Origin: Parcubacteria bacterium C7867-005
Lineage (GTDB): Bacteria > Patescibacteriota > Minisyncoccia > Phycocordibacterales > Zambryskibacteraceae
Assembly (NCBI GenBank): GCA_001189165.1
Contig: LFCO01000003.1
Coordinates: 50,769-114,768, forward strand
Direction: 5' to 3'
Length of the DNA: 64,000 nt
A program made the position numbers and the translations under genes. Positions 1 to 46,684 of this stretch are shown piece by piece. Numbering within the stretch: the stretch's first letter is position 1; each line of letters starts with the position of its first letter. The notes beneath the pieces are model-generated. The model ran no database searches and was not told the origin of the DNA. It saw only the letters and a program-made list of their open reading frames with translations.

Positions 1-321
1 ACCGGGGAGCTCTACAATCAACCTCTCCTCCTTATTACCGGATAGTAGTCCTGATTTTTCAGTCTGAATAAGCGGTTCAGAAACACCGAAGATGTTTATT
101 CTGCGTTCTATTACTTCCTTCAAACTCTCCATCGCACCGTCTACATCCGTTGTTTTAGAAGTATCTGCTCTGTAAACAAGCTCTGTACCTCCGACCAGAT
201 CCAAACCAAACCTAAATGGGAACCTGGATTCAGGACGATTTTGCCTGACCAAGAAGTAGGCTAAAAGGGCAAACACTATTATTAGAATGATGGATGCCCA
301 GAGGTGCTTTCGGCCTTGCAT
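1..321 (-). CDS. secD: Protein translocase subunit SecD, N-terminal fragment (gene continues beyond window start)
   Basis: Reverse-strand translation from ATG at 319-321 gives a TM helix followed by FRFGLDLVGGTELVY, the conserved SecD periplasmic start motif; not in ORF track because it runs off the window edge. Confidence 0.55.
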   Translation of the reverse strand, partial: MQGRKHLWASIILIIVFALLAYFLVRQNRPESRFPFRFGLDLVGGTELVYRADTSKTTDVDGAMESLKEVIERRINIFGVSEPLIQTEKSGLLSGNKEERLIVELPG

Positions 322-366
322 TATAGGGGCATTATACAGATTGATTTAATTCGAGCAAAGTACACT

Positions 367-1716
367 CTATTTACCCGCTCTAGAGAGGAGGGTTCGTACT
401 GTTCGAAGTGCGATGCGGAGATCGAGGAGGAATGATCTATTTTTGATGTAATAAAGATCATAGGAAAGTTTGTTTTTGGTTTCGAGTATATCTATAGAGT
501 GGTGAGGGTGCCCTTCATGGTAGATCTGTGCCCAGCCCGATAAACCTGGTTTGATAATATGCCTTACATTATAGAAAGGAATCTCCCCCATATACTGCTT
601 CACTGGATCAGGGAATTCTGGTCTTGGACCTATGAGAGAGATGTTGCCCACGATAACATTCCATAGTTGGGGTAGTTCGTCTATTCGACTATTTCGAAGA
701 AAAGCACCTACACGTGTCACCTTATTCTCAACACCACCCCACTTACCATCATCATTGGCTTTGGTCATGGTTCTAAACTTGATGATCTTTACGATTTTAT
801 TATTCTGGCCAACTCTATTCTGAAAACTAAACAAATCTCCACCATCGTCTAGTTTGATAGCGATAAATACAAATGGATAAATAATGAGCGACAAAATACC
901 TAACACCAGAGATATAGACACGTCCATCATCCGTTTGAGCATGTCATAAGCAACACGCGGTGAGGTAGAGACGTTTTCCAAAAACCAATTATATTTTATA
1001 AGAGAAAGAGGAACACGATCGAAGATGTCTTCATACATCTTGTGCATATCCACAAAATTTATATTCGAGAAAATTAGTTTATAGAAATATGGCAAAACTG
1101 GCTCTACTTCGGGGTGATTCAGGTCTATCACGACCAGAGAAACATCCTCGCTGTAGACGGTGGAAACAATTTCATCTAGAACATTTTTATCTCTAGTCTT
1201 GTCTAAATCTACCGAAGAAACAAAGTGGATATTATAAAGCGGTTGATTATTTATTTCTTCAAAGAGCCCCTTCATCTCTTCCCCACCGCCGATGATAACC
1301 GCATTGATAGGAGTCCTATTGCCCAAGAGAAAATACAGATAGGCTCTCCAAAACAAAACTACTCCAAAAGAGATTATGAGGTAGATAAATAGAACAGTTT
1401 TTGGCGTGATACCAAAATAAGGTACCAAATAGAAGAAAAGAACCGCCAAACCAGAATTAACTATCTGGGTGTTAAACAAAAGACCGGGGAGCCTCGAACG
1501 CAGGATGAGGGTCTGCTTCTCGTACAAACCAGCGACATAAAAAACCGACACCCAGATTATAAAAATCAGACCAAATGGGCCAAGGTGCGAGAGTAATACT
1601 TCTTTAGATGGTACCTCTAAATTTCTGATGGCCAAAGCTACAAACAAAGACAGGATAAAAAAGAAGATGTCACCAAAGAGGAGGATAAGCGGTCCTTTCC
1701 GTCTGAGAGAATTCAT
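367..1716 (-). CDS. Polyprenyl-phosphate glycosylphosphotransferase (bacterial sugar transferase, WbaP/WcaJ-like)
   Basis: 449 aa; multiple N-terminal TM helices, CoA-binding-like middle region, C-terminal bacterial sugar transferase domain (KFRTM...DELPQLWNVIVGNISLIGPRP). Confidence 0.8.
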   Translation of the reverse strand: MNSLRRKGPLILLFGDIFFFILSLFVALAIRNLEVPSKEVLLSHLGPFGLIFIIWVSVFYVAGLYEKQTLILRSRLPGLLFNTQIVNSGLAVLFFYLVPYFGITPKTVLFIYLIISFGVVLFWRAYLYFLLGNRTPINAVIIGGGEEMKGLFEEINNQPLYNIHFVSSVDLDKTRDKNVLDEIVSTVYSEDVSLVVIDLNHPEVEPVLPYFYKLIFSNINFVDMHKMYEDIFDRVPLSLIKYNWFLENVSTSPRVAYDMLKRMMDVSISLVLGILSLIIYPFVFIAIKLDDGGDLFSFQNRVGQNNKIVKIIKFRTMTKANDDGKWGGVENKVTRVGAFLRNSRIDELPQLWNVIVGNISLIGPRPEFPDPVKQYMGEIPFYNVRHIIKPGLSGWAQIYHEGHPHHSIDILETKNKLSYDLYYIKNRSFLLDLRIALRTVRTLLSRAGK

Positions 1717-1757
1717 TTACCGTGCATTATACACCAAAATCCATATAATGGCTATAT

Positions 1758-2855
1758 ATGAACACTTCCTCACCAAAACGAGTTCTATTTGGCATCACCA
1801 AATCAAATTTTGGCGGTGCACAAAGATATGTCTTTGACCTCGCACTTCGAGCAAGAGATATGGGACACCAGGTGACTGTCTTATGCGGTGGCAATGGAGA
1901 ATTAGTTGAGAAACTCAGATCTTCAAGTATTCGGGTGGTAAATATACCGATGTTTGGCCGGGACTTCTCTTGGTTATCCGACCTTCAATCATTGTTTTTT
2001 ATTATCAAAACTGTGGCAAGAGAAAGGCCGGATGTATTTCACATAAATAGTGCCAAGATGGGAGGTGCGGGTATATTTGCAGGACGACTGCTTAGAGTCC
2101 CTAAAATAATATTCACCGCCCATGGCTGGGCCTTCAACGAAAACCGATCCTGGATATCTAAAATATTTATAAAATTTTTATCCTGGCTCACTATCCTGGG
2201 TTCTCATCAAACAATCGCAGTATCAGAAAAAACCAGAAGGGATATCTCGAACTGGCCATTTATCAAAAGTAAAATAATAGTAATCAAGAATGGTATAAGT
2301 AAATTTGAATTAATTGAACGTACAAATCAAACTTTTACCGTTGGGACGATAGCTGAACTCCACCACATAAAGGGACTCGATGTACTCCTGAAAGCTTGGA
2401 GTAGATTCGTAGATAAACACAGGGATGTAAGACTGGTGATCATCGGAGATGGGGAGGAAAAACAAAATCTATTTAATTTGGCTCAAAGTTTAGGGATATC
2501 AAGTTCGGTCTCTTTCGAGGGATTTGTAGAGAATGCTAAATCTCATCTTTCACTATTTGATATCTTTGTGCTTCCCTCTCGTTCAGAGGCTATGCCATAT
2601 GCATTATTAGAAGCAGGAGTTGCTTCTCTGCCTGTTATCGCTTGTGCGGTCGGGGGGATACCAGAAGTTATAGAACACGGGAAATCTGGTCTGCTTATAA
2701 AACCCAACAACCCAGACGAACTGACTGAATCACTGGACAAACTAAAAGAAAATGAGAGTTTAAGAAAAGAACTGGGTGAACGTCTACATGAAAAAGTGAT
2801 TAAAGATTTTTCTGTAGAAAAGATGGTACGTGATACACTAAAACTGTATGTTTAG
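1758..2855 (+). CDS. Glycosyltransferase family 4 (GT-B, group 1)
   Basis: 365 aa; C-terminal EAGVASLPVIACAVGGIPEVI...GLL motif typical of GT4 retaining glycosyltransferases. Confidence 0.8.
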   Translation: MNTSSPKRVLFGITKSNFGGAQRYVFDLALRARDMGHQVTVLCGGNGELVEKLRSSSIRVVNIPMFGRDFSWLSDLQSLFFIIKTVARERPDVFHINSAKMGGAGIFAGRLLRVPKIIFTAHGWAFNENRSWISKIFIKFLSWLTILGSHQTIAVSEKTRRDISNWPFIKSKIIVIKNGISKFELIERTNQTFTVGTIAELHHIKGLDVLLKAWSRFVDKHRDVRLVIIGDGEEKQNLFNLAQSLGISSSVSFEGFVENAKSHLSLFDIFVLPSRSEAMPYALLEAGVASLPVIACAVGGIPEVIEHGKSGLLIKPNNPDELTESLDKLKENESLRKELGERLHEKVIKDFSVEKMVRDTLKLYV

Positions 2856-3306
2856 AAACACCCTCGACCGAGTTGATGCAAACATCATAAACTTTCTACG
2901 CAAGATTTCTTTCCCTATGGCGAGATTCGCTTTATTCTTGGTCTTCTTTTGGTTTGGATTTCTGAAGATAATAGACACCAGTCCAGCTGGGCCGATGGTC
3001 GTGTCACTCCTCGACCGAACTATGCCTTTTATTGCACCCGATACTTTTATGGTCTTCTTTGGTATTTTTGAAGTGATCATCGGCATCACTTTCATCATCC
3101 CCAAACTCGAGAGGCTGGCCATCGCACTTTTGGTGCCACACCTTATATCTACTGTTCTACCACTATTCCTGCTTCAAAGTATGACTTGGACCAGTATGTT
3201 TGTACCCACATTGGAAGGTCAATACATCATCAAAAATATCTTGATCATAGCTGTGGCCATCAGCCTCGCTGCCCATCTACATCCTCTTAAAACAAGATTG
3301 AATTAG
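2848..3306 (+). CDS. Hypothetical small integral membrane protein
   Basis: 152 aa, 4 predicted TM helices, 8-bp overlap with upstream GT4 gene. Confidence 0.4.
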   Translation: MFRNTLDRVDANIINFLRKISFPMARFALFLVFFWFGFLKIIDTSPAGPMVVSLLDRTMPFIAPDTFMVFFGIFEVIIGITFIIPKLERLAIALLVPHLISTVLPLFLLQSMTWTSMFVPTLEGQYIIKNILIIAVAISLAAHLHPLKTRLN

Positions 3307-3308
3307 TT

Positions 3309-4421
3309 CTAAATCCTCGGACCATTTGAGTGACCACTCATACTGGACAACATCCCTAAAGCAAACCACTCTGTCAAAAGATGTGATCCTCCATAGCTCA
3401 TAAACGGAAAAGTGATCCCCGTCACAGGCAAGACACCCATATTCATACCAGCATGGATGATGATGTGCACGGTGAACAAGATCGCCAGGCCTAAACCAAA
3501 AAGTGATTCGAAATTCGCTGGGGCAAATTGCGCACTATTCACAATTCTGAATAACAAGAGAATACACAGAAACAGGAGGAGGCATGTACCAACCAAACCC
3601 CATTCTTCAGCAAAGGAAGCGAAGATAAAGTCTGTCTGGAACTCTGGTAGAAACCTGAGTTTGGATTGACTGCCCTCTCCGATACCCTTACCAAAAACTT
3701 CTCCTGAACCAACGGCCACCGTGGATTGGTAGGCGTTGTATCCACTGCCGGTGATATTCGCAAGTGGGTGGAGGAAGTTAGCGATACGCGCTTTTTGATA
3801 TGGGGCGAAGACGAAGAACCACATTATCACGGTGACTATCGCACCGAGACCGATGACCAGTGCCAGATGCTTTTTGGATATACCAGAGACGAGGAGCATC
3901 CCAAACCAGATCGCAAAGATGATGACTGCCCCACCAAAATCGGGCTGTAAGAACACTAATAAAAAAACGATCAAAGCATAAATACCAGAGACAATGATGT
4001 GCTTGATATTCGCTATCTCTATATGTCTCCTGGAAAAATACTTGGCCAACATGAGAATGGTCACAAGCTTTGCAGGGTCAGATGGTTGAAAAGCAAAAAA
4101 GCCAAAATCAAACCAGCTTTGTGCTCCTTTGACCACTTGTCCGAGGCCAAACAAAAGCAAAAGTACGAAAACCATAATAAAAAATACAGTCATGAGGATT
4201 CTGGTTTGTCTTAGAAACCTCCAGTCGACGGCGCTCGCAAACACGAACGCCAACACAGATAAAAGTATCCAGATGGCTTGTTTAGAAAAAAATGAATGAT
4301 CGACGGAGAAAGAATTCATGGTGATCAAACCAAACAAAGATATGAGCATGGCTGGTACAAAGAGGTACCAATCGATCCGGATGCGCTCTCCGAATGTTTT
4401 AAAAAGTGAAACTAAACTCAT
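3309..4421 (-). CDS. SEDS-family peptidoglycan glycosyltransferase (FtsW/RodA/SpoVE)
   Basis: 370 aa polytopic membrane protein; C-terminal FtsW/RodA signature (EFQTDFIFASFAEEWG ... FPFMSYGGSHLL). Confidence 0.85.
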   Translation of the reverse strand: MSLVSLFKTFGERIRIDWYLFVPAMLISLFGLITMNSFSVDHSFFSKQAIWILLSVLAFVFASAVDWRFLRQTRILMTVFFIMVFVLLLLFGLGQVVKGAQSWFDFGFFAFQPSDPAKLVTILMLAKYFSRRHIEIANIKHIIVSGIYALIVFLLVFLQPDFGGAVIIFAIWFGMLLVSGISKKHLALVIGLGAIVTVIMWFFVFAPYQKARIANFLHPLANITGSGYNAYQSTVAVGSGEVFGKGIGEGSQSKLRFLPEFQTDFIFASFAEEWGLVGTCLLLFLCILLLFRIVNSAQFAPANFESLFGLGLAILFTVHIIIHAGMNMGVLPVTGITFPFMSYGGSHLLTEWFALGMLSSMSGHSNGPRI

Positions 4422-5227
4422 TTGATGAAACTTCGATCTGGTAAAATTCTGAGGAAAATTTCTGCTACATTTGTAGGATTAACAAAACCACTATTCCAAA
4501 CAAAAACCAACGGAGTAAATGCTCCTGGGTCTATGCTGTCTACGAATGTTTTCCCAGCTGTCACCACGTTACCACTTGGATCTGAAACCACCGCCACTAA
4601 CTCTATATTCGAAACTGCTGACAAAGATTTATTCAGCAGCCGGGCATCTAACCTCGCAGAAGTAGTCGCCCCTGAAAGTGTGATGTTTTCTATGGCTAAA
4701 TCAGGAGTGACGCGCTCATCTTTCTGCCAAACCAAAGTGTCTTCTGACCAAGCGAAGGTTGCTCTGGTGGGTATCGCATCTTCGAATACATACGGACCTT
4801 CGAATATGGCAAATGTAGAAGATTTGGGGACAAAAGTTTTACCGAGGATTGTCTTGATAGGGACAGAACTCGAGGCGTTAAAATATTTTATGGTGTATTC
4901 GGCTCTATTGATCATCCCATAAACATTTGGATTCTCTAGATTTATTAGTGTGACAAAAGTTTTATCACTAACTCTTATTAGCCTTGGATCGCCCTTGGAT
5001 ATCACTGGTAGAGATTCTGCAGGGCAGATCAAACTGCACGAACCACCACAATCCACTCCTGACTCATCCCCATTTCTTCTTTGGTCAAAACATGTTGGTT
5101 TTTGATGTAGAAAAAAATACAAAGGTAAACCAACTACGACAATCAAAAAGATGAGAACGATGGATAAAATAATCCTCTTCCTGCGTATAGACCATTGATT
5201 CATAAGAATAATTATAGCAAAAAACAC
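4418..5227 (-). CDS. Hypothetical membrane-anchored protein
   Basis: 269 aa, single N-terminal TM, Cys cluster (DCGGSCSLICP); 4-bp overlap with downstream SEDS gene suggests co-transcription. Confidence 0.45.
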   Translation of the reverse strand: MFFAIIILMNQWSIRRKRIILSIVLIFLIVVVGLPLYFFLHQKPTCFDQRRNGDESGVDCGGSCSLICPAESLPVISKGDPRLIRVSDKTFVTLINLENPNVYGMINRAEYTIKYFNASSSVPIKTILGKTFVPKSSTFAIFEGPYVFEDAIPTRATFAWSEDTLVWQKDERVTPDLAIENITLSGATTSARLDARLLNKSLSAVSNIELVAVVSDPSGNVVTAGKTFVDSIDPGAFTPLVFVWNSGFVNPTNVAEIFLRILPDRSFIK

Positions 5228-5250
5228 CGACTTAGGCGGTGTTTTTTGTT
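5221..5250 (-). terminator. Rho-independent terminator downstream of 5S rRNA
   Basis: GC hairpin (acaccg...cggtgt) followed by T-tract on the minus strand immediately after the 5S 3' end. Confidence 0.5.
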
Positions 5251-5260
5251 TTGAAAACTT

Positions 5261-5370
5261 AGTTCTGGCGACTAGCTACTTTCCCCCATAGGAGTATCAT
5301 CGCCTCAACAAGGCTTAACTTCCGTGTTCGGAATGAGAACGGGTGTGACCCTTGCGACAAATCACCAGAA
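5261..5370 (-). rRNA. rrf: 5S ribosomal RNA
   Basis: Reverse complement reads gttctggtgatttgtcgcaagggtcacacccgttctcattccgaacacggaagttaagcc...cgccagaac with paired termini, matching canonical bacterial 5S loop motifs (CCGAACACGGAAGTTAAG). Confidence 0.85.
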
Positions 5371-5535
5371 CTAAACTTTCAAATACATACAAAAAAACCG
5401 ACTGGAAACATTTTATCTTTTTGTTTTGGAAAATAAACACCAAATGGTTTGATCCCATTTAGCAGAACAGAGCATCCACATCAGACAACTGCAAGCAGTG
5501 GACATCTGATATGGGTTTGTGATTTCTAAATTTCC

Positions 5536-8455
<2,920 letters not shown>

Positions 8456-8961
8456 TTAGGAAATTTAAAAACCACTTACTTTTACTTCGCTCACGAATAA
8501 ATTCGCGAGACGAAGGAGTGCCGAGTTTGCACCGTCCAGTGCAAACTCGACCTGCTCTGTTCTGCTAAATGAAATCAATCATTTAGCAATTTATTTTCCT
8601 GCCCACCTCCATGTGTTTAAAGACCCCAAAACACCCTCTCGCTTGCGCGAGAAAGTGTCCTGATTCCGTCTTGCGACGGAATCATGGAGACACACGTGGT
8701 GGAATTAAAATGTCAAAGTTCGGGCCCAAAAATGAAGACCTCCGCTTCTTTCAAAGCGGAGGTCTTTTGAGACCAAAGCTAGCCGTTTGGCTAGCTTTTT
8801 CGCTTTGAAGAATTAAGGTTTTTAAACATTTTTGGGTCTCCGTATCTTATCTTTTCTCTCTTTATCTGTCAACAAGCCCACCATTTCCCCTTTTTACCCC
8901 TTTTGGGTATATCCTCATGCTTATCCCTTGACGACATAATGACAGGGTATATGCTTAGGGT

Positions 8962-9837
8962 ATGAAGAAGAGTAGCAAGTACGGCATCCCCAGTCTCAAG
9001 CGAGAATTTCCTACTGATGAAGCCTGTCTGAATTTTATATATGATTCTCTACATTCACGTCTCTGTTCGTGCGGGGGTACATACTCCCTACTGAAAGGCC
9101 GAAGGCAGTTCCAATGTTCAAATTGCCGGTTTCAGATAGCTCCCTGTATTGGTACCATCTTTGAAAAATCACCCACTCCTCTCACCCTCTGGTTCCACGC
9201 AGTACTTGTATTCTCAAACGCCAAGAGTGGGATCTCTTCCAAGCAGATGCAGAGAGAATTAGAGGTTACCTACAAGTGCGCCTACCGGATGCTCAAGATG
9301 GTCCGGGAATCACTTTCTGATAATGGTGATCTGCTCAAGGGAGATGTAGAGGTAGATAGTTCAGTTTTCGGGGGCAAGTCTTACGGAGGAAAATACAATA
9401 AATATCAGAAACAGATGTTGAATAATAAGAGCATCGCTATTGCCGCTCTCGAGAGAGGGGGTAGGGCTCGAGTGAAAGTGATCCCGGCAGACAATACCCA
9501 GGTTCAGACAGACTTTGTGATTGATAACATCAATATGAAAGGCACGCGCCTACTGACAGACAAAACTTCTAGATTAGTTCGGGTTCATCGAATGGGGTAC
9601 GATCGCCACAGTGTGAACCATACGAAGCGAGAATACGCTCGAGGCGATATCCATATAAATACCGTAGAGACCTGGTGGGCCCATGTGAAGAGGAGTATCC
9701 TAGGAACCCATAAGAACGTCTCTAAGCGATACTTGCAGTCTTACTTGGACGCTTTCGCTTGGCACTATGGCATGAGGCACAACGACAGGCGCCGTTTCGA
9801 GGTTTTGATTGGTGCTGTATTGCGACCTTCAAAATAG
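8962..9837 (+). mobile_element. IS1595-family (ISXO2-like) DDE transposase gene
   Basis: 291 aa; N-terminal transposase zinc-ribbon (CSCGG...CSNCRF) followed by ISXO2-like DDE domain (LTLWFHAVLVFSNAKSGISSKQMQRELEVTYKCAYRMLKMVRE). Terminal inverted repeats could not be delimited by eye. Confidence 0.75.
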
Positions 9838-10619
9838 TGAGGAACTTCTGAAGATTCATTGTCCCCAGTATAACCTAGAAACATGCTTGCACTAGCAAAA
9901 TATGCTATAATCTCTGATGTTGATGGTATCAGCATCACGGGCGTTCCCAACTTCGTACTAGTCAACGAAGTAAAACGATAAAGAGATTGTGGACTGAGTG
10001 TGGGGTGTCTGGAAAATGCTAGACGTCCCAAAGGACGGCAGAGTAAGAAGACTTACTTTATCGGCCAGCTCCCCCGCCCTCAGTTCAGAACCTTGTTTAT
10101 CAAAGAACCCTTTATTCCCGATTTTCTTCGGTTGTGTTCAGTTAGGCAGCCTCTTGTTTCAAAAGTTTCCTCCCAAGAGACACGGAAGTCTCGGTGTTTG
10201 TGAGGAGGGCGCTTCGCTAACGGTCAGCGTCCCTCTTTCTCGGAAGAGAAGACCGTCAGTTTGTGGACTGAACAACACCACAAAAAATGTTTCAATGTGT
10301 CACTTCCTTCCGTCATTGGAGGAGCAAAAAGATCATCAGCGCAAGCGATTATGGTCTTAAGTGCTTCCCTATTGGCGGAGGTAAAAAGAAAAGAGCGGGT
10401 GGACCGCTCAGTTCTTCTAAGAAATCTTCTTAGTTTCTTTCTCAAGCATTCACCCCGAAAGGGGTGTTTGCTTTATGTATATTCTAGTCTCGGGCGATCC
10501 AGGTTCCTAGTAAAAACGTGGATAACCTGGGGAAGCCAGTATACGCCAATGATCCGGAGGGTCAAGCTCGCCTACCATTATGTGTTCAAGGGATAGGTGT
10601 GTATATCCTGTGGGTAACA

Positions 10620-10650
10620 AGAAACCCAAGGTTTTACCCTTGGGTTTACA
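10620..10650 (-). terminator. Putative terminator for GC-rich ORF 10669-11052
   Basis: Hairpin aaacccaagg-tttta-cccttgggttt followed by T-rich run on the minus strand. Confidence 0.4.
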
Positions 10651-10668
10651 CGTATACCGCCTACACCT

Positions 10669-11052
10669 TCAAGGATAGATCTTGGCGAAGATCTCCCTCT
10701 CGCTCGGAGTCATCGAAGCGAGCACTCGGGACCTAGCTGCCGTCTGGTTGTCGCCGAAGTCCACGACCGCTGTAGGCTCACTGACGAGGAAAACCGTTCC
10801 CCCATTCGTGAGCACTCGAACCATCGGCCCTTCATACTCGACCGAATCCGGCGCCGAGTCGATCAAGCGATCGAGGATCGAGCCGTCTTCGTAGAACCCG
10901 AGGAGCTCTTTCGCTCCCGCTTTCCGATCACGCCTGACGATCTCCATGAGATCCATCGGCATGAAGAACGGAGTGCGAAACGTCGGGTCAGCAATAACTC
11001 TACGGATGTTTCGCTCGAGCAGTTCGCGGTCCTTCTTACTGATTTCGCTCAC
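10669..11052 (-). CDS. Hypothetical protein, GC-rich (atypical composition)
   Basis: 127 aa ORF with markedly higher GC than flanking DNA; no recognisable motif. Confidence 0.4.
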   Translation of the reverse strand: MSEISKKDRELLERNIRRVIADPTFRTPFFMPMDLMEIVRRDRKAGAKELLGFYEDGSILDRLIDSAPDSVEYEGPMVRVLTNGGTVFLVSEPTAVVDFGDNQTAARSRVLASMTPSEREIFAKIYP

Positions 11053-11176
11053 GGTCTCCTCTCTATGGGGGTCAGCAGCAAATTCAAAAACTTAGTCCAG
11101 AAACAACCCTACTCTCTTCATTAAAAAAGTAAAGCTTCTGGACACCAATCCTTTTGTCTCCCAACCCACCCATGGT

Positions 11177-11199
11177 GTGTCAACCTGCCAGGTTGACAC
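11177..11199. repeat. 23-bp perfect palindrome GTGTCAACCTGCCAGGTTGACAC, copy 1 (REP-like)
   Basis: Exact sequence shared with copies at 13400 and 14080; followed by GGGG as in copy 3. Confidence 0.9.
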
Positions 11200-11240
11200 G
11201 GGGATGGTAGATAAATAAGAAACGCCCCATTTCAGGAGCG

Positions 11241-11729
11241 TTAGACAGAGAGGTCAGGGAGATGCTTGAACCTCACGAGAACAGCCTCCCCACTCTCGAC
11301 CAAGAAATTCATGGGGAGAAGCTGTTGGGCATGCAGGAAATCTGGTTCCCTGCCAGACCGACGGAAGTGCACCGCCGTGACCTTGCCATCACCAGATGAG
11401 CGATGGTCAGAATACATCAGTATGGCGGGACAATTGTGATCCGTGTCCAGACCATAAAGCTCTCCGTGACGACCGGTCAGGTGGGCGAACTCGAGAAAGA
11501 CCGTCTCGAACTCACCGTACGTCAACTCGATTCGCACCCCGTACTTGGCACACAGATACCAGACCACGTCTTCGAGCATCCATACTAGCATCAGAGCTTC
11601 GAGCTGATCCCGCGTGAGCAAAGCGATGTACTGTTCACGAGTGATCCCGCCTTCTCGCTTCGGTGTCTGCATTGTAGCCCCGGTTGAGTGAGATTGAATT
11701 GAGAGTTTGTACCTAAATCCATCCCCCAC
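11241..11729 (-). CDS. Hypothetical protein, GC-rich
   Basis: 162 aa ORF between palindrome copies 1 and 2; atypical GC; no recognisable motif. Confidence 0.4.
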   Translation of the reverse strand: MGDGFRYKLSIQSHSTGATMQTPKREGGITREQYIALLTRDQLEALMLVWMLEDVVWYLCAKYGVRIELTYGEFETVFLEFAHLTGRHGELYGLDTDHNCPAILMYSDHRSSGDGKVTAVHFRRSGREPDFLHAQQLLPMNFLVESGEAVLVRFKHLPDLSV

Positions 11730-11777
11730 CCTACCGATTTATAAAAAATTGTAAAGAAGAACACTCCCAAAGGAGTG

Positions 11778-12170
11778 CTAGAGAAAGAGTAGGAAACCAC
11801 TCGCATAAGCGACAGCCCACGTGGGCAAGAAAACCCACTTGGCGAACTTGATGTGCTGATCTCTGTAGAGCCACCTCTCGTATGGCCATCCCCACTTGGC
11901 ATGGTATCCCAAGTAGGCCTGGAAGAAAAAGAGGCCGATCGCGGAAAGAGACAGAACCGTGTGAAGCTGGACCCAGACAGAGACACGGGACAGACTCACA
12001 CCATCCTGACTGATCACCACCATCAGGTACGTCGCATACATGTCAGCGACGAAGCCAGATATGGCGAGCACGACATGTGAAGCCCAGCTCCGCCTGGCGA
12101 TGAAGAACGCCGTGAGGTATAGCGCGAGCGCCACGGTCATCCACAGTTCGATCTGATGTCTGACTTCCAT
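11778..12170 (-). CDS. Hypothetical integral membrane protein, GC-rich
   Basis: 130 aa, 4 predicted TM helices; atypical GC. Confidence 0.45.
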   Translation of the reverse strand: MEVRHQIELWMTVALALYLTAFFIARRSWASHVVLAISGFVADMYATYLMVVISQDGVSLSRVSVWVQLHTVLSLSAIGLFFFQAYLGYHAKWGWPYERWLYRDQHIKFAKWVFLPTWAVAYASGFLLFL

Positions 12171-12284
12171 CTGCCTAACCCCCGGTTGGTTGAATTGTTA
12201 GAACTCCGTCCACTACCCTACCTTCTTATCCCAAAAAGTAAAGCCATTATTTCAATCTTAGAATATTGAATGTCCCACAAAAGA

Positions 12285-13094
12285 CTACTCTTTATCAACA
12301 CAGGCTGCTTGATCAGTCGTGCAGGCAAGTTTTTTATTTTTGCCACATGCACCAGATCTTTTAAAGAGATTTTTTCCACATGCCAAGTAAGTATTCTCGT
12401 TATAATTCTCGACCGTCCAATTAAAAGTCATATTACTATTAATGAATGTCTTGCACTGCCTTTGGTCAAAATCTGTCATTAGGTCGTTTTCACAATCATC
12501 TAGAGCAGCGTAGTGCTTTGCAATAGTCGAAATTGTTTTGTTTTTAAGTTTTTTATTTTTGTTTTGAGCGGGTTCAGTTTTTGGTAAATAGTAGTTGGTT
12601 AATGTTAAATCAACCATTTTTCGAAGAAGTCTCTTACAATTATTTTCATTGACCTGCTCGAGCAAAGAGCTATTGCATTTTTTACTTTCATACTTATCTT
12701 TAACTTTTATATACTCAGGGTTTTTTTCATAATTTTCTCCACCAGAAAAGTGCTGATCAGTGTCCACTAAGGGCGAGAAAGGTCCGTTACGGATTGTTGG
12801 GGTACTTGGCACGTAATGTTTAAAACTATCCAGGGAAGAGTTGCGGTAATTATCTAGATACGTCGAAGAATTTCCGGGGGCAATTTTATTTGTGTACGGA
12901 TTAATATTTCCTGGATAACTCCAATTATTATAGGGGCTACTATCTGGATCTGAGCGATAGTGTGGTTCAACATAAGTGCCATTTTTCCTGTAATAACCCC
13001 TTACACTTACGGCTGCATCTACGACCATAGGTAGGTAGGAAAAAAACACCAGTAGAACCAAGCTTAGTAGAAAAGATCGTTTTAGTGATGTCAT
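12285..13094 (-). CDS. Hypothetical secreted Cys-containing protein
   Basis: 269 aa; N-terminal signal peptide (LLSLVLLVFFSYLPMVVDAAVS), Tyr/Asn/Pro-rich N-terminal half, Cys-rich C-terminus; AT-rich like host genome. Confidence 0.5.
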   Translation of the reverse strand: MTSLKRSFLLSLVLLVFFSYLPMVVDAAVSVRGYYRKNGTYVEPHYRSDPDSSPYNNWSYPGNINPYTNKIAPGNSSTYLDNYRNSSLDSFKHYVPSTPTIRNGPFSPLVDTDQHFSGGENYEKNPEYIKVKDKYESKKCNSSLLEQVNENNCKRLLRKMVDLTLTNYYLPKTEPAQNKNKKLKNKTISTIAKHYAALDDCENDLMTDFDQRQCKTFINSNMTFNWTVENYNENTYLACGKNLFKRSGACGKNKKLACTTDQAACVDKE

Positions 13095-13380
13095 ATTGTA
13101 AATACTGTTTATAATTTACTCTGTCAGGAAAATAAAGCAACTCTACCTGAATCAGCCCCCTGCAAGTCATACATGATCTCATTTATGACCACTTGTGCGT
13201 TAGAGGTAGTTGGAGAAAAAACTATTAGTACTAGAACAAAGAGAGTTCTAGTAGTTTGCACGTATATGGTATATCGCAGCTAGGCTAAGTATAAGAATGA
13301 AGATAAAGCTAAGGAAAAATTTGAAGAAAGCTTTATCGAAATATTTCATAACTTAATATAACCACAAAAACTCTGAGTAA

Positions 13381-14049
13381 TCAATTTCCATTCCCCACTG
13401 TGTCAACCTGCCAGGTTGACACAGTTGGATTGTCGAGAAATTTGATGAGCTCTTTTTGATATTTTTTCTCATTTGTATCAAACATCTCATAGAACAGCTC
13501 CTTGTTAACAACTGCAGAATGCATCCCTGACCCATAAAAATCTTTGAAACTTGACCATTCATAGTTTGATAAAAAATCTAGAGCCTTGTCTGTATTTATT
13601 GATGACGATTTCCACTTAGGAAACTTTAAATCTAAGGGGTTAATGTCTATGTAGACCGGGGCGTAGATAAACTGGCTATCATCAGTCATGCGAACGATCT
13701 TGGCACTGTTCTGAAATAAGTAACCGCTTCTTTTACCATTCTTAGTATTAAAATATTTTGTATATGCATTTCCCAATCTTTTCGTAAACTCCAAAATACC
13801 TCCCTCTTCTAACTCATAAATCAGTAAGTGGTAGTGATTGGGCAAAAGGCTCCATTTAAAGATCTCTACCAACTTCTTACGTTTCAAGTCATTGTGTCCT
13901 AGTGTATTCCCTTGTCTTGTTCTTATTTTTCCCTCTTTGTTATTAAGTAAAAACAAGTTTTCAACAAAGCGCAAATAATCTTTTCTATTCAGAAAGATGT
14001 TTCTTTTTTCTACTCCTCTATTAAAGACATGAGCAATATCACCTACCAT
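13381..14049 (-). mobile_element. IS200-like / REP-associated tyrosine transposase (RAYT-like, HUH Y1 family, COG1943)
   Basis: 222 aa; HUH motif LPNHYHLLI (compare MPDHVHLLV of IS200 TnpA), conserved upstream N-terminal block HVFNRGVEKRNIF...DYLRFVENL, downstream GYLFQNS...YIAPVYIDINPL (compare RAYT GHLWQGRY...YIHxNPV). The ORF as called reads through palindrome copy 2, so the true stop is probably earlier. Confidence 0.7.
13400..13422. repeat. 23-bp perfect palindrome GTGTCAACCTGCCAGGTTGACAC, copy 2
   Basis: Exact copy; extended here to a 29-bp palindrome (act...agt); lies at the 3' end of the RAYT-like gene. Confidence 0.9.
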
Positions 14050-14079
14050 TAACTCTAATTCTATTTTGTTGTGGCCCCC

Positions 14080-14102
14080 GTGTCAACCTGCCAGGTTGAC
14101 AC
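14080..14102. repeat. 23-bp perfect palindrome GTGTCAACCTGCCAGGTTGACAC, copy 3
   Basis: Exact copy, extended by CCCCC/GGGGG to a 33-bp palindrome; lies 30 bp upstream of the RAYT-like gene start. Confidence 0.9.
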
Positions 14103-14145
14103 GGGGGAACGGTGGTGCGTGTTAATTTTTTGTTTTCACACATAA

Positions 14146-14173
14146 CAAAACCACCCCGTGAGGGGTGGTTTTG
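14146..14173 (-). terminator. Rho-independent terminator (bidirectional-looking) after surface protein gene
   Basis: aaaaccacccc-gtga-ggggtggtttt hairpin with T-runs on both strands. Confidence 0.55.
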
Positions 14174-14232
14174 AAACTCTCTAAACTTTTATCCTAGAGC
14201 ACGAGGCTCGAGAGATAAAGAGATTAGATAAC

Positions 14233-16170
14233 TTATATCACGTTCATTGACACAGCTGGAGTCAAGAAGTTATTCAAGTTGAAGTTGTAGACGTTTGCAT
14301 GTGCATCGCCGCTATCACTATCCCACTTGATACCTGTCATGACAACCTGGATTATACCGTCAGCATCTGCTTCAAGAACAACGCTGGTGGTAAATCTTCG
14401 AGTTGTGTTCTGATCAACCTTGAATGATGTTGAAACATCATCAGAGTCAACTGAACCTGAAGTTGTAATCGAGCTTACAGTCGTAGAACCTGTTGTTGAC
14501 TGTGAAGTAGTAGCAAACGAGTTACCGTTTACACCTGCTGATGCCTGTGTAGAGGTTGCTACAACAGTATCCTTGTCAACCCAGAGGTCAGCGCCGAAGG
14601 CAGTGACGTCGAATGTGAAGGTAAATGTTGCTTGATCCTGTTCACCTGCATCATCAGCTACAAATGTCTTAACTCCTGTAGGAGTACCAACAAGGGCAAC
14701 TGAGATACCGTCAACGAAGAATGCTTGAGCCTCTCCAGCAATGTTGTCTGTTACTGAAATTGCATCGCCTTGTTCATCTTCAGCATCAATCAAGTGACCA
14801 CGAACAGTAGCAGTAAGCTTGTCACCAGAGGTGAAGGCACTTGCTTCTGTGTCGTTTACGTCAACTTTGATTGTGTAGGTTTCTGTATCACCTGCATCGA
14901 TGGTCATATCTAGATCATCGAATACTATGACTGAAGTACCAGTAGCTGAAGCTGATGGGCTTTCACTTCCGATCTCAGTGTTACCGTGGTAGAGGTAAAC
15001 AGTCTTTGCGATCTGGTTAACTGAACCAACTGTACCAGTTGAGGTTGCGAGAAGGACACCGATTTCATCAACCCAAGCGTCTGAATCATCTCCGGCTTCA
15101 AGCTCGAATTCGATGAGAGTGATACCGTTGGTATCGTTTGTATCATCTACTTCGTGAGAGAGAGCGTTTGGTGAATCATTTCCTTCGGTCAATTCAAGAG
15201 CGCCGGCTGAGACGTCTTCAAATGTCATAGTGACAGTGTCAGAGTCATCACCTGCTTCCTGATCAATACCTGCTCCGTCGATAGCGCGGATACCGTTATC
15301 TTCTACAGATACCAAGAAGTCCTGGTCTGTATCAGAACCATCGATGTTGTCTTGAGCTGTTACTTCAAGGGTGTACCTTGCTGTAGCATCTTCTTTGACA
15401 ACGTTATTTAGACCACCGAAACGGATGGTGTAGATGTCAGAACCTTCGTCTGACCAGTCATCTTCATCACCGGCGTTTATAGTAGCGATCTTTGTACTGT
15501 CTCTGTAAAGAGAGAGAGTATCGATGTAATCCCAAGGCTCATCACCTAGGGCTTGGTTTGTTGCGTCGAACTGGAAGTCAATACGCTGAACTGAAAGGTC
15601 AGAGTCTTCTGCATCGAATTCAAACGCCATAACCTTGACTGTCTGTCCTTCCTGTACATCTTCGTTAGAAGGTGAACCTAGAACATCGAAGTCAGTGATA
15701 TCTCCTTCCGCTCCGGGAGTAGAGATAGCGCCAGTTGAAGGTGTACCGGTTGAAGGTGTACCTGGAACTGAAGGCATAGATGAGTTAGCAGCTGCGCGAG
15801 ACTTTGGTCCCCAGTAACCTACAGCAGGAGCGATTCCTGAAGCTGCTTGCCACTTTGCGACTGCGTTCTTTGTAAGAGCACCGAAATAACCCTTTGCTAC
15901 GCCAACTGGCATAACAAGGTGTCCCTTGGATTCAAGGAGATTCTGAAGTGCGACAACTTCTGAACCAGAACTACCGAGGGTAAGGTCGGTGTTGAATGAT
16001 CCTGTTGTAGCTGCTGCTGAACTACCTCCCATAGCTGCGATTTGCGCCATGAGAAGATCGATCTTTGCCTGTAGATCTGAAGTGCTCTGAGCTCCTGCTG
16101 TAACAGCGAAGCTTAGGGCTGCGATAGATCCTGCACTGTAGGCAGCGATTCTTGCGATTGTTTTACTCAT
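14233..16170 (-). CDS. Secreted surface protein with peptidoglycan-binding domain and long acidic Asp/Thr/Ser-rich region
   Basis: 645 aa; signal peptide ending AGAQS, PG_binding_1-like segment (GSSGSEVVALQNLLESKGHL...YFGALTKNAVAKWQAASG), then about 450 aa of low-complexity D/T/S/G-rich sequence. Confidence 0.6.
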   Translation of the reverse strand: MSKTIARIAAYSAGSIAALSFAVTAGAQSTSDLQAKIDLLMAQIAAMGGSSAAATTGSFNTDLTLGSSGSEVVALQNLLESKGHLVMPVGVAKGYFGALTKNAVAKWQAASGIAPAVGYWGPKSRAAANSSMPSVPGTPSTGTPSTGAISTPGAEGDITDFDVLGSPSNEDVQEGQTVKVMAFEFDAEDSDLSVQRIDFQFDATNQALGDEPWDYIDTLSLYRDSTKIATINAGDEDDWSDEGSDIYTIRFGGLNNVVKEDATARYTLEVTAQDNIDGSDTDQDFLVSVEDNGIRAIDGAGIDQEAGDDSDTVTMTFEDVSAGALELTEGNDSPNALSHEVDDTNDTNGITLIEFELEAGDDSDAWVDEIGVLLATSTGTVGSVNQIAKTVYLYHGNTEIGSESPSASATGTSVIVFDDLDMTIDAGDTETYTIKVDVNDTEASAFTSGDKLTATVRGHLIDAEDEQGDAISVTDNIAGEAQAFFVDGISVALVGTPTGVKTFVADDAGEQDQATFTFTFDVTAFGADLWVDKDTVVATSTQASAGVNGNSFATTSQSTTGSTTVSSITTSGSVDSDDVSTSFKVDQNTTRRFTTSVVLEADADGIIQVVMTGIKWDSDSGDAHANVYNFNLNNFLTPAVSMNVI

Positions 16171-38320: not shown

Positions 38321-40105
38321 CTACATCCTTTCAGGAGTTGGGATACCGAGTATGGTCAGACCATTCTTCATCACTGTATTAAATGCTTTGGTGACAGCGA
38401 TGAGGTATGCGGATTCTGGTTTATCAGAAAGGATCTGTTCTCTGGCATACAGGCTGTTGAAACTCCCTGCAAGTTGAGTCAGATAAGTGGTGATGTGGCT
38501 CGGTGCGAATTCATCCATCGCATTCTCTACTACTTCTGGAAATCTGTAGAGAAGTTTCTCTATCTCATAGTTTTCTTCTATCTTGATATTTGTATCGGCG
38601 GATTTATCTGCTTTTTCCAATATGGAGTTAGTTCGTGCATAAGCATATTGGAGATAGACACCAGAATCTCCTTCGGTAGAAACAGATTTTTCCAAATCAA
38701 AAATAATATCATTCCCTATCGACTGCCTGAGGATCATATATTTGATCGCTCCTATGGCCACCTCCTCTTGGGCGATGTCTCCTTTATCTGAGATAATTTT
38801 CTTAACATCTTCAATCAAATCTTCTGCGGTGATAATCGTCCCAGTTCTAGACGACATCTTTCCGGAGGGTAGCTTTAGGACACCATGAGATAAGTGCCTC
38901 AGCTTGCCATTTAATTCTGGGAAGATTTGGCTAATCGCCACTTCCACAACATTGAAGAAAGCATCCTGCTCATTCGCAGTTATGGTTATGGATTCGTCGT
39001 ATACAAATTTATTCTTTTTAATTTTAGCCAAACCGACTTCCTTAGCCTCATACGTTGGCAACTTTTCTGAGTTTAAAAAGACTCTAGTATGTAGACCGAA
39101 TTTTTCACCTTTAAAAATGATTGCTCCCTCGCTTTCTTCAAAGACCTCGCCCGCGTTTTCTAAAACTAATTTCTTTCCTATTTCCCCAGCTTCGCTCTCA
39201 TAAAAGTGGCCAGCAAATTCGCTACCTAGCCTTTTGTACATAAGCTCAAAATCATCTAGAGAATTTTGTCTGCCGGATTCATACAGAGCGTTAACCTTGC
39301 TATCTGATTTATCATAAATCTTTTTGTTGATCTCTATTATTTCTTTTTTAGCATTTTCATCATCTTCATAAGATTTGTGTCCGAAAGCATAAGCTCCAGT
39401 AAAGTCACCTGATTGTTTTAGTGCCCCCCATATAGCCTTGGCGACATGGAGTCCGACATCGCCGTGATAGGTAACGGTTTTTACATTTGCCCCATTTGCC
39501 TTGATCATCCCAGCCACAGATTCGCCGATGATATTGTTCATCATGTGACCAATATGAAATTCTTTGAATGGGTTTGGCTGTGTATGTTCAACCAAGAACT
39601 TTTTATCTTCCAGATTAGAATTTTGACCAAAATTATCTCCGGCATCAATGATCTGTTTGAGTGAGTTTAAAAAGAATTTTTTGGAGAGATAGAAATTGAT
39701 AAACCCAGGGCCGGCGATTTCTACCCTCTCTATGTCATCTGTCTTGTTTTTATCCAAATATTCAAATATCTCTTGTGCACGGGTACGACGCTTGATCCCC
39801 ACATTTGTAGAATAATCCCCCATTTTTAGGTCCGCGGGGTGCTCCACCACAAAGTCCGTATCCTGTATATCGAGCCCCCTTAAGGCCTCTTTTATCAGTA
39901 TTTCTATAGTATTTTTCACCTCCTCATGATACCCGAAAGGAGGGTGGATAGAAATATGTAAAGAAACCTGCTCGTTAGAGCAGGTTGTACAGCTAAGCCA
40001 GGAGCTTGTCGAGAGTCGTTCGGAAATCCTCCCAGACTTCTTCAATATCACGACTCGCGTCGATCTGGATGACTCGGGCGAATTCAGAGAACTCACCGTA
40101 GCCAC
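38321..40105 (-). CDS. argS: Arginyl-tRNA synthetase (annotated ORF is 5'-extended; true start probably near 39950)
   Basis: ArgRS N-terminal add-1-like domain, catalytic core, DALR anticodon-binding C-terminus. The first about 50 codons of the track ORF overlap tmk and its terminator hairpin and are probably not translated. Confidence 0.8.
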   Translation of the reverse strand: MATVSSLNSPESSRSTRVVILKKSGRISERLSTSSWLSCTTCSNEQVSLHISIHPPFGYHEEVKNTIEILIKEALRGLDIQDTDFVVEHPADLKMGDYSTNVGIKRRTRAQEIFEYLDKNKTDDIERVEIAGPGFINFYLSKKFFLNSLKQIIDAGDNFGQNSNLEDKKFLVEHTQPNPFKEFHIGHMMNNIIGESVAGMIKANGANVKTVTYHGDVGLHVAKAIWGALKQSGDFTGAYAFGHKSYEDDENAKKEIIEINKKIYDKSDSKVNALYESGRQNSLDDFELMYKRLGSEFAGHFYESEAGEIGKKLVLENAGEVFEESEGAIIFKGEKFGLHTRVFLNSEKLPTYEAKEVGLAKIKKNKFVYDESITITANEQDAFFNVVEVAISQIFPELNGKLRHLSHGVLKLPSGKMSSRTGTIITAEDLIEDVKKIISDKGDIAQEEVAIGAIKYMILRQSIGNDIIFDLEKSVSTEGDSGVYLQYAYARTNSILEKADKSADTNIKIEENYEIEKLLYRFPEVVENAMDEFAPSHITTYLTQLAGSFNSLYAREQILSDKPESAYLIAVTKAFNTVMKNGLTILGIPTPERM

Positions 40106-40613
40106 GACGCACCCTCTTGTGGAACTCGAGGTCCTTATCGTCGAAGGAGTTCGTATCCGTCGACCGACGCTTCCTCCCCAGACCGATCTCCGGATCTATA
40201 TCCAGATAGACGTATATCGGGGCGACGACACCACTCATCATCTCCTCTCTCACCACTCGGAAAAGCGAGATGAGGCCGTGATGCTCTTCGCCCCAGATCT
40301 GGTAAGCGAAGGTTGAAGCATCAAAACGATCCGAGACAACATTCGCACCACGGAGAAGCGCGGGCATGATCTTCGTTTTGAGGTGATCGGCTCTCGCGGC
40401 CCAGAAGAGATGGAACTGTGCCTCTGCTGATAGATCCTTTCCTCTCTCCGAGAACAAGAGGCCCCTAATCTCCTCGGCGATCGGGGTACCACCTGGCTCT
40501 CTGGTAACAACCAGTTCAGCCCCCCCGCCGGCGTACTTTTCGTAACGCTTGAGGTGGGTGCTTTTGCCTGAACCCTCTCCGCCTTCGACCACCACAAATG
40601 ATCCACGTCGCAT
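39993..40613 (-). CDS. tmk: Thymidylate kinase
   Basis: 206 aa; P-loop VVVEGGEGSGKST, TREPGGT motif, LID region; GC-rich. Confidence 0.85.
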   Translation of the reverse strand: MRRGSFVVVEGGEGSGKSTHLKRYEKYAGGGAELVVTREPGGTPIAEEIRGLLFSERGKDLSAEAQFHLFWAARADHLKTKIMPALLRGANVVSDRFDASTFAYQIWGEEHHGLISLFRVVREEMMSGVVAPIYVYLDIDPEIGLGRKRRSTDTNSFDDKDLEFHKRVRRGYGEFSEFARVIQIDASRDIEEVWEDFRTTLDKLLA

Positions 40614-40703
40614 AAAACCCCCGCCTAGGTTTGTTTTCCAAAAACAGTCTATAAACAGAGTAGACCTCCTCCACTAAAAGGTAAACTTGACTCGCCCTCC
40701 AAT

Positions 40704-46609: not shown

Positions 46610-46684
46610 GGGTGCCCACCGGGAATCGAACCCGAATTGCAAGTTCCACAAACTTGAGTGTTAACCGTTACACCATGGGCACCA
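46610..46684 (-). tRNA. tRNA-His (anticodon GTG)
   Basis: Cloverleaf readable in reverse complement: extra 5' G(-1), D-arm gtgtaacggttaacac, anticodon loop ttGTGga, T-arm ggttcgattcc. Confidence 0.8.

Follow-up and report, generated by a model that had tools for sequence, protein, structure and literature searches.

The DNA analysed here (hereafter the window) is a stretch of 64,000 nucleotides from Parcubacteria bacterium C7867-005 (contig LFCO01000003.1, positions 50,769 to 114,768), whose genome comprises three scaffolds, 563,550 bp, with a GC content of 42% (PMC4508563). The window carries a 23S and a 5S rRNA gene, and upstream of the 23S gene lies a patch of accessory DNA comprising an IS1595-family insertion sequence (IS), a block of GC-rich open reading frames (ORFs), a gene for a secreted protein and a module that resembles the REP-associated tyrosine transposases (RAYTs) with their repetitive extragenic palindromic (REP) sequences. 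An original prediction, made from the sequence of this stretch, placed the patch exactly where a 16S rRNA gene would be, and proposed either that the rRNA genes of this organism are natively unlinked or that mobile insertions have split the operon.

The rRNA genes and their flanks

The features that concern the rRNA genes are listed below, with window coordinates.

1758-2855, plus strand: glycosyltransferase gene, between the FtsW and Bac_transf genes, both on the minus strand
5263..5369, minus strand: 5S rRNA gene (Rfam RF00001, 75.9 bits, model positions 1-120)
5428..5474, minus strand: 3' arm of the long-range stem enclosing the 23S gene, in the 23S-5S spacer; pairs with 8553-8599
5534..8458, minus strand: 23S rRNA gene (Rfam RF02541, 2104 bits, model positions 1-2925 over 2925 nt; full length, without insertions)
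8459..8843, minus strand: native 23S leader, which aligns block by block with the leaders of eight relatives
8553..8599, minus strand: 5' arm of that processing stem, within the leader (47 nt, 81% complementary to 5428-5474)
8735..8766, minus strand: GC-rich terminator-like hairpin plus T-run in the leader (14-bp stem, then CATTTTTGG)
8844..8872, minus strand: sigma-70-like promoter of the 23S-5S unit, TTGACA-17-TAAGAT (10 of 12 positions matching, at -414 from the 23S gene)
14146..14173, minus strand: terminator of the PG-binding protein gene (12-bp stem, 7 GC pairs), which forms the right edge of the variable patch
14233..16170, minus strand: gene of a PG-binding-domain protein (Pfam PF01471), the conserved upstream synteny anchor, with homologues upstream of the 23S gene in relatives L008 and L026

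The original prediction described both rRNA genes as intact on the minus strand and accompanied by a processing stem, and this is borne out by the full-length Rfam matches and by the complementary segments in leader and spacer. The terminator that it assigned to the 23S-5S unit was not recovered: none was found after the 5S gene, and the sole terminator-like hairpin nearby (5464->5438) sits between 23S and 5S, where it forms the 3' arm of the processing stem. The reported lack of a 16S gene or spacer tRNA upstream of the 23S gene agrees with our searches. Rfam gave no match to small-subunit rRNA in the whole window, including the 55.5 kb upstream of the 23S gene (8459-64000), a permissive Rfam search (E<=5) of positions 8400-14400 returned no 16S, internal transcribed spacer (ITS) or other rRNA fragment except the 5' end of the 23S gene itself, and ARAGORN found no tRNA gene before window position 46610. 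With no 16S gene within ~1.5 kb upstream of the 23S gene and no spacer tRNA, the locus is not a canonical 16S-ITS-23S-5S operon.

The 16S gene lies just outside the window, on contig DGYO01000001.1 (L001), of which positions 1-5872 match window positions 5872-1 at 100% identity and which extends past the left window edge. There, a complete 16S gene (L001 8071-9588; Rfam, model positions 1-1533) is found 2.2-3.7 kb to the left of window position 1, with a tRNA-Ile(GAT) gene on its 3' side (L001 9950-10023). The statement that no 16S gene occurs in the 64 kb thus holds by Rfam, but fails as a claim of absence, since the window stops 2.2 kb short of the gene. The 16S gene is on the same strand as the 23S gene, at a distance of 7,460 nt from the 3' end of the 5S gene to its own 5' end, and the starts of the 23S and 16S genes are 10.7 kb apart. 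Along the direction of transcription, the gene order reads 23S, 5S, a DCGG-motif membrane protein (269 aa, hereafter the marker, whose gene starts 36-59 nt past the 5S gene, depending on the start codon), FtsW/RodA, glycosyltransferase, Bac_transf, SecD, SecF, 16S and tRNA-Ile. The 16S and 23S genes are therefore unlinked in the sense of Brewer et al. (more than 1500 bp from 16S to 23S), and the arrangement is of type D in the sense of Lui et al., as the intervening genes, including the glycosyltransferase gene on the opposite strand, preclude a single transcript.

Both units are equipped with signals of their own. A promoter-like site (TTGACG-16-TATACT) precedes the 16S gene at L001 7821-7848, the flanks of this gene are complementary, and a strong hairpin is found at L001 9764-9789. 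As the 23S-5S unit likewise comes with a promoter-like site, a leader and a flanking processing stem, the two units are, to judge from these motifs, presumably transcribed separately.

No terminator-like hairpin was found between the 5S gene and the marker gene (window 5203-5263, minus strand), which is followed by ftsW/rodA. The marker gene also starts 24-60 nt after the 5S gene, again without an intervening terminator-like hairpin, in 17 of 75 related species (L014-L016, L021, L023, L046, L048 and others). The marker and ftsW/rodA genes may thus be co-transcribed with the rRNA.

An rRNA layout common to related species

To place this order in its phylogenetic context, one genome per species was searched with an alignment of the DCGG marker family, yielding 80 loci from metagenome-assembled genomes (MAGs) of Zambryskibacteria, Paceibacterota and Minisyncoccia, and the three rRNAs were mapped onto each locus. 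The 5S gene lies just upstream of the marker gene in 75 of these 80 species loci, and the 23S gene is there in 70. The 16S gene was found downstream of the marker gene in 36 loci and upstream of it in none. The gap between 5S and 16S, measurable in 35 of the 36 loci, spans 6.9-10.2 kb (median 8.8). The same 23S-to-16S order is seen on long contigs (L005, L006/L007, L008, which belongs to Zambryskibacteria, and L010).

On the other side of the 23S gene, 12 loci contain a complete 23S gene together with 0.3-6.4 kb of upstream flank, and none of them has a 16S gene there. The genes found upstream of 23S are those of a PG-binding protein, an HHH/PKD protein, MsrA and MsrB in L008, L010, L026 and L028, and those of mechanosensitive-channel-like or DUF3466-like proteins in more distant relatives; no transposase or other mobile gene was found upstream of 23S in the relatives' loci. 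The slot between the PG-binding gene and the 23S gene, in which the original prediction expected a 16S gene, is thus occupied in relatives by a ComEA-like HHH/PKD gene, msrA and msrB.

The region directly upstream of the 23S gene is itself native. Sites equivalent to the promoter at 8844..8872 (at least 10 of 12 positions matching) occur at -296 to -425 in 8 of the 13 relatives with an upstream flank (9 of 14 loci overall), and the leaders align as a series of blocks, namely the promoter, the TGTTTAAAAAC block, hairpins, the processing-stem block and the 23S 5' end. The processing-stem block ATTGATTTCATTTAGCAG is conserved in the relatives' 23S leaders (alignment A2). The leader hairpin plus T-run begins 102-108 nt after the -35 box in all nine loci in which hairpins were detected sequence by sequence (the window plus L008, L010, L012, L026, L072, L076, L078 and L080); the stem sequences differ, and in the nine loci examined a second TTGACA-containing block lies 3' of the hairpin. 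RNAalifold returned no consensus structure for the 23S leader segment, in which the hairpins are out of register in the MAFFT alignment. The hairpin could be an attenuator that is read through by antitermination, or it could terminate a short leader RNA, with a second promoter lying beyond it.

In our view, it is highly probable that the rRNA genes are unlinked by descent, and that the patch is a later mosaic in a variable slot which did not separate 16S from 23S. The permuted rRNA order would then predate the split of this genome, itself Zambryskibacteria-like, from many Zambryskibacteria/Paceibacterota species. Of the two explanations in the original prediction, this is the native one, which gains from a 16S gene 7.46 kb downstream of the 5S gene and from the same permuted order in dozens of related species. 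The prediction had advised locating the 16S gene and inspecting its flanks; the gene lies on L001, with the tRNA-Ile(GAT) after it. It had also proposed that relatives with an unlinked layout free of mobile elements would mark an ancestral rather than insertion-driven arrangement; such is the layout that the relatives exhibit.

The other explanation, according to which mobile elements (the IS1595 element, the RAYT module or the GC-rich block) split or rearranged a formerly linked 16S-ITS-23S-5S operon, has a probability that we regard as close to negligible. The IS and the RAYT-like gene do lie upstream of the 23S gene, and copies of the REP-like palindrome are found near both rRNA loci, one of them just after the 16S-linked tRNA-Ile. 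However, the permuted layout is common to 36 species without these elements, and no transposase was found at this place in relatives. Up to position 8872, the leader and promoter-like site share homology with their counterparts in relatives, and no remnant of 16S or ITS lies between 8400 and 14400. Finally, the 9-bp target duplication of the IS is intact, so the IS caused no rearrangement.

Assembly error was considered as a further explanation. From position 7897 onward, the window is matched by UBA contig DGYO01000002.1; a JGI contig begins at 7835, a Logan contig extends over 7877-11202, and all three are 100% identical to the window, running from the 23S 5' end into the patch. Three assemblies therefore cross the junction at 8.4-9.0 kb, for which the original prediction had recommended a check for mis-assembly, and this junction is not an artefact of one assembler. 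It is most improbable that the 23S-5S pair was placed between unrelated contigs or is a chimera of rRNA reads from the community. Chimeric joins classically arise in conserved rRNA regions, and two other assemblies break in the 23S gene, at 5872 and at 7835/7897. Their contig ends nevertheless enter the gene on the proper sides and with the proper orientation (339 nt of its 3' end and 562-624 nt of its 5' end), and in relatives L008, L026 and L078 (a 562-kb contig) a single contig carries the PG-binding gene, 23S-5S and the marker gene as one continuous stretch.

Several observations weigh against an origin of the layout by descent, or limit its reach. The central part of the 23S gene (5873-7834) is present solely in the original C7867-005 assembly, and the UBA and JGI contigs break inside the gene, so that the physical join depends on one assembly plus synteny in relatives. 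The rRNA mapping in this genome covered the window plus L001. A conserved terminator-like hairpin stands between the promoter-like site and the 23S gene, and the promoters and terminators were assigned by motif matching. In twelve more distant relatives, the sequence extends 10 kb downstream and contains no 16S gene there. Lastly, even the closest relatives found share only ~50-56% identity with this genome in the marker protein, which limits how far the order and timing of the patch acquisitions can be read.

Unlinked rRNA genes are already documented in bacteria of the Candidate Phyla Radiation (CPR), and the finding is in this respect ordinary. Patescibacteria are a clade with unlinked rRNA genes (bioRxiv 10.1101/705046), and 27 of 34 circularised CPR genomes are unlinked, about half of these having the 16S gene nearer to 5S than to 23S (PMC8172020). 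The present locus resembles those described in these two studies in its clade-specific conserved pattern and in having 16S nearer to 5S than to 23S, and differs from them in no essential respect. The addition made here is the specific conserved order 23S-5S-marker-FtsW-GT-Bac_transf-SecDF-16S-tRNA-Ile (GT, glycosyltransferase), found in at least 36 species. The unlinked 16S and 23S-5S genes of Buchnera and Wolbachia, to the extent that they are presented where PMC8172020 cites them, are comparable in that a 23S-5S unit would need its own promoter and in the small genome; here, in contrast, the units are only 7.5 kb apart on one strand, tRNA-Ile is kept with 16S, and the host is a groundwater CPR bacterium.

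A 23S-5S pair without an adjacent 16S gene should thus be treated with caution in CPR genomes, where it is the normal state and not a sign of disruption. The conserved order, with 7 kb of envelope, division and secretion genes between 5S and 16S, may serve as a synteny marker for Zambryskibacteria-like genomes, may guide the joining of MAG contigs broken at rRNA genes, and may warn users of amplicon methods that span 16S-ITS-23S.

The relatives' 23S genes are 3.9-6 kb long and contain insertions, while the gene studied here is insertion-free (2925 nt). Examples are the 23S spans of L008 (4722-9018), L010 (4493-8372 by Rfam, with blastn pieces to 9502) and L080 (3494-9456); the L010 gene carries a group I intron plus an internal LAGLIDADG ORF. 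In some relatives, tRNA genes lie between 23S and 5S (L005 715-788, L006 787-939), and there is none in the spacer of this genome.

The IS1595-family element and the GC-rich block

The patch contains the following features, the last two in the list above forming its right border.

8907..8915, no strand: left copy of the 9-bp target-site duplication GTATATCCT, directly outside the left end of the IS
8916..10600, plus strand: IS1595-family insertion sequence, 1685 bp (inverted repeats plus flanking 9-bp duplication)
8962..9837, plus strand: IS1595 DDE transposase gene, 291 aa (Pfam PF12762, NCBIfam NF033547)
9838..10570, plus strand: ORF-less structured cargo or tail of the IS, recognised by its fold z-score; candidate RNA at ~9918-10476
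10601..10609, no strand: right copy of the duplication GTATATCCT, an identical 9-mer abutting the right end of the IS
10622..10647, minus strand: hairpin downstream of GC-rich ORF 1, likely its terminator, read from the sequence as AAACCCAAGG GTAAAA CCTTGGGTTT then CTTGTT
10669..11052, minus strand: GC-rich orphan ORF 1, 127 aa (GC 0.57, GC3 0.70, z +3.3 relative to the window's genes)
11177..11203, no strand: solitary REP-like palindrome between GC-rich ORFs 1 and 2 (27 nt, 100% identical to 14080-14106)
11241..11729, minus strand: GC-rich orphan ORF 2, 162 aa (GC3 0.62; alternative start ATG at 11672)
11778..12170, minus strand: GC-rich ORF 3, a small membrane protein of 130 aa (GC3 0.72)
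12285..13094, minus strand: secreted-protein gene, 269 aa, with signal peptide (GC 0.37)
13381..14049, minus strand: RAYT-like Y1/HUH tyrosine transposase gene, 222 aa (profile matches, family alignment, PDB match)
13394..13428, no strand: REP-like palindrome at the 3' end of the RAYT-like gene (core GTGTCAACCTGCCAGGTTGACAC at 13400)
14075..14107, no strand: REP-like palindrome upstream of the RAYT-like gene (33 nt; core GTGTCAACCTGCCAGGTTGACAC at 14080)

The contents that the original prediction listed for these 5.8 kb (an IS1595 transposase, a hairpin-rich non-coding stretch, GC-rich ORFs and a RAYT-like palindromic module) are all real. We propose that a 5.3-kb patch, from 8916 to ~14145, fills a variable slot between the PG-binding gene and the 23S promoter in which relatives hold housekeeping genes, and that it would have arisen by separate acquisitions of the REP-RAYT-REP module, the low-GC secreted-protein gene, the GC-rich three-gene block and the IS1595-family element. 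The latter probably arrived last, because its target duplication is intact, and would have left the native 23S promoter and leader undisturbed. The patch shows that even a 0.56-Mb genome keeps a small variable slot beside its most highly expressed locus, in which an IS, RAYT/REP sequences and foreign GC-rich genes have collected.

The transposase matches both PF12762 (6.4e-27, 94.9 bits, cut-off 27) and NF033547 (9e-41, 140 bits, cut-off 75). It has 877 homologues at E<=1e-20, of which the best 120 listed are ~54-62% identical, those with a named host being from CPR bacteria. The inverted repeats of the element (8922-8946 and 10571-10595) are imperfect, with 21 of 25 positions matching. An exact 9-bp duplication is present at both ends of the IS, so the flanks were contiguous before insertion, and the empty site would read TTTTGGGTATATCCTGTGGGTAAC. 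The IS1595 family normally duplicates ~8 bp of target; the duplication reads as 9 bp here, and from this one copy its true length is 8 or 9 bp. The element landed between the hairpin at 10622-10647 and the 23S promoter-like site, at a distance of 43 nt from the -35 box, with its transposase gene oriented away from the 23S gene.

Related transposase genes are preceded by a conserved version of the left repeat, and three related copies (L147, L143 and L144) also have a matching right repeat, 660-900 nt after the transposase stop, with other cargo in between (in L147, a 166-aa ORF plus an Endonuclease_7 gene). Non-coding DNA after a related transposase in L137 was rejected as an IS tail, as it has recognisable tRNA sequences on the other strand. 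There is no second copy of the IS in the window, and the exact transposase protein was found at this locus only; an ORF of 291 aa at 40704-41579 was discarded as a possible second copy, as it encodes ThyX. The ISPna2+/ISNwi1+ type groups of ISfinder, IS1595-family elements with passenger DNA, are alike in the DDE_Tnp_IS1595 transposase, the inverted repeats, a duplication of ~8 bp and extra DNA before the right end. The present element differs from them in its 9-bp duplication, in that one copy was seen, and in its ORF-less cargo, which folds unusually well as RNA.

The 763 nt at 9838-10600 have a minimum free energy of -269.5 kcal/mol on the plus strand (z -7.4) and of -239.3 on the minus strand (z -3.0). 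Among 42 window/strand segments of 763 nt that were sampled, the cargo fold is the most extreme (z -7.2 to -7.4); for comparison, z is -5.7 for the 23S 5' domain and -2.5 to +1.6 for coding DNA. An extended -10 box (TGCTATAAT, 9903-9911) lies 5' of the candidate RNA, which ends with terminator-like hairpins at 10393-10409 and 10451-10466. The cargo contains no ORF and no Rfam family (E<=5), blastn, tblastx and nhmmer found nothing like the IS tail in 148 fetched loci, and a blastn search with 9838-12210 gave no match in plasmid and phage collections. The 830-bp hairpin-rich stretch of the original prediction (9838-10668) is mostly this cargo, the remainder being the hairpin after GC-rich ORF 1. 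That the segment encodes a structured RNA of ~540 nt (9918-10476, plus strand), with its own extended -10 promoter and intrinsic terminator, which would travel with the IS, seems to us conceivable but unlikely. We know of no RNA cargo or partner described for DDE IS1595 elements.

Next to the IS, the GC-rich block (~10610-12210, 1.6 kb) has a GC content of 0.54-0.57 and a GC content at third codon positions (GC3) of 0.62-0.72, 2.2-3.4 standard deviations above the window's genes (window mean GC3, 0.44). Because of these outlying values, the block was probably acquired laterally from a donor of higher GC. ORFs 1 and 2 have no match in Pfam, PHROG, NCBIfam or PADLOC, and no defence-system match was obtained. 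ORF 3 has a weak full-length match to the HsmA family (NCBIfam TIGR03987, 9e-4, below cut-off). The only homologue of ORF 2 among 5.8 billion clusters is ORF 2 itself, the 90% cluster of ORF 1 contains this genome only, as do those found in the cluster look-ups of the patch proteins, and tblastn gave no match for ORFs 1 and 3 in plasmids or for ORF 1 in phages. The motif CTTTAC-N17/18-TAGGGT stands before each of the three ORFs (11103-11135, 11733-11760 and 12212-12244, minus strand) and is possibly a shared promoter type of foreign origin. The adjoining secreted protein matches, with its N-terminal residues 9-70, phrog_29674 (1e-13), a phage family of unknown function.

A second compositional outlier was noted elsewhere in the window (39993-41579), where thyX (40704-41579, GC 0.57, GC3 0.76) adjoins thymidylate kinase and dCTP deaminase genes; this region may be another lateral acquisition.

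The RAYT-like module and its palindromes

The RAYT-like protein matches REP_Tyr_transpos (NF047646) at 2e-5 (24.4 bits, cut-off 80) and Y1_Tnp (PF01797) at 0.003 (18 bits, cut-off 23). Its family is large (5,277 cluster representatives at E<=1e-3); of 35 members that were sampled, 29 match PF01797 (best, 3.7e-12). In a 35-member alignment (A4), H74 and Y133 are invariant and H72 is nearly so, H72-Y-H74 forming the HUH motif. The best PDB match is 4ER8, the TnpA-REP protein of E. coli, with which the HUH and YIxxNP segments align; AlphaFold2, run without an alignment, gave a pLDDT of 35. Patch proteins are absent from all relative loci, except for a 35%-identical RAYT homologue elsewhere in L046.

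The 23-nt palindrome GTGTCAACCTGCCAGGTTGACAC has three copies in the window, all inside the patch, where zero are expected by chance, and a fourth lies at L001 10059-10081, just after tRNA-Ile. These four copies in the ~70 kb of this genome examined include two solitary ones (11177 and L001 10059), and no doublets were seen. The identical core was found on 46 metagenome contig stretches, with 45 of 60 occurrences outside ORFs of at least 100 aa, and was absent from viral contigs. On about ten of these contigs, paired palindromes (spacing 497-696 nt) enclose a RAYT homologue or its remnant, the intact homologues being 52-68% identical.

The palindromes also bear on the possibility that the whole patch (8916-14145) is one composite mobile island moving as a unit, for example via the REP-like palindromes or the IS. 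Two identical 27-nt palindromes, at 11177 and 14080, lie on either side of 2.9 kb of the patch, and every patch gene is absent from relatives. Yet the metagenome pairs enclose the RAYT gene alone, the IS has a target duplication of its own, the GC content is a mosaic (0.35-0.37 in the RAYT-like and secreted-protein genes, 0.54-0.57 in the GC-rich ORFs and 0.46 in the IS), and no second copy of the patch turned up in any data set searched. We therefore consider a single island very unlikely, and favour separate acquisitions into the slot.

Like the E. coli TnpA-REP (4ER8) systems, the module combines a Y1 enzyme with HUH motif and tyrosine with a gene flanked by a palindrome that also occurs singly in intergenic DNA. 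It differs from REP/RAYT systems in several respects: the protein has 222 aa with an extra C-terminal part, and its scores fall short of the cut-offs of the RAYT models; palindromes are sparse, none was seen as a REPIN doublet, and the host is a CPR bacterium; and the 23-nt core does not vary around homologues that share only 52-68% identity.

The palindrome 11177-11203 is also the precise end point of the Logan contig SRR5324951_15, which is consistent with a break of the assembly graph at a repeated element. Both strands of the palindrome contain TTGACA, which upstream of the RAYT-like gene provides the -35 box of a promoter match (TTGACA-17-TAGAAT, 11 of 12 positions, 14086->14058). The -10 box of this match ends 8 nt before the ATG, suggesting a leaderless mRNA, and in metagenomic homologues the distance from palindrome to start codon is likewise ~28-31 nt.

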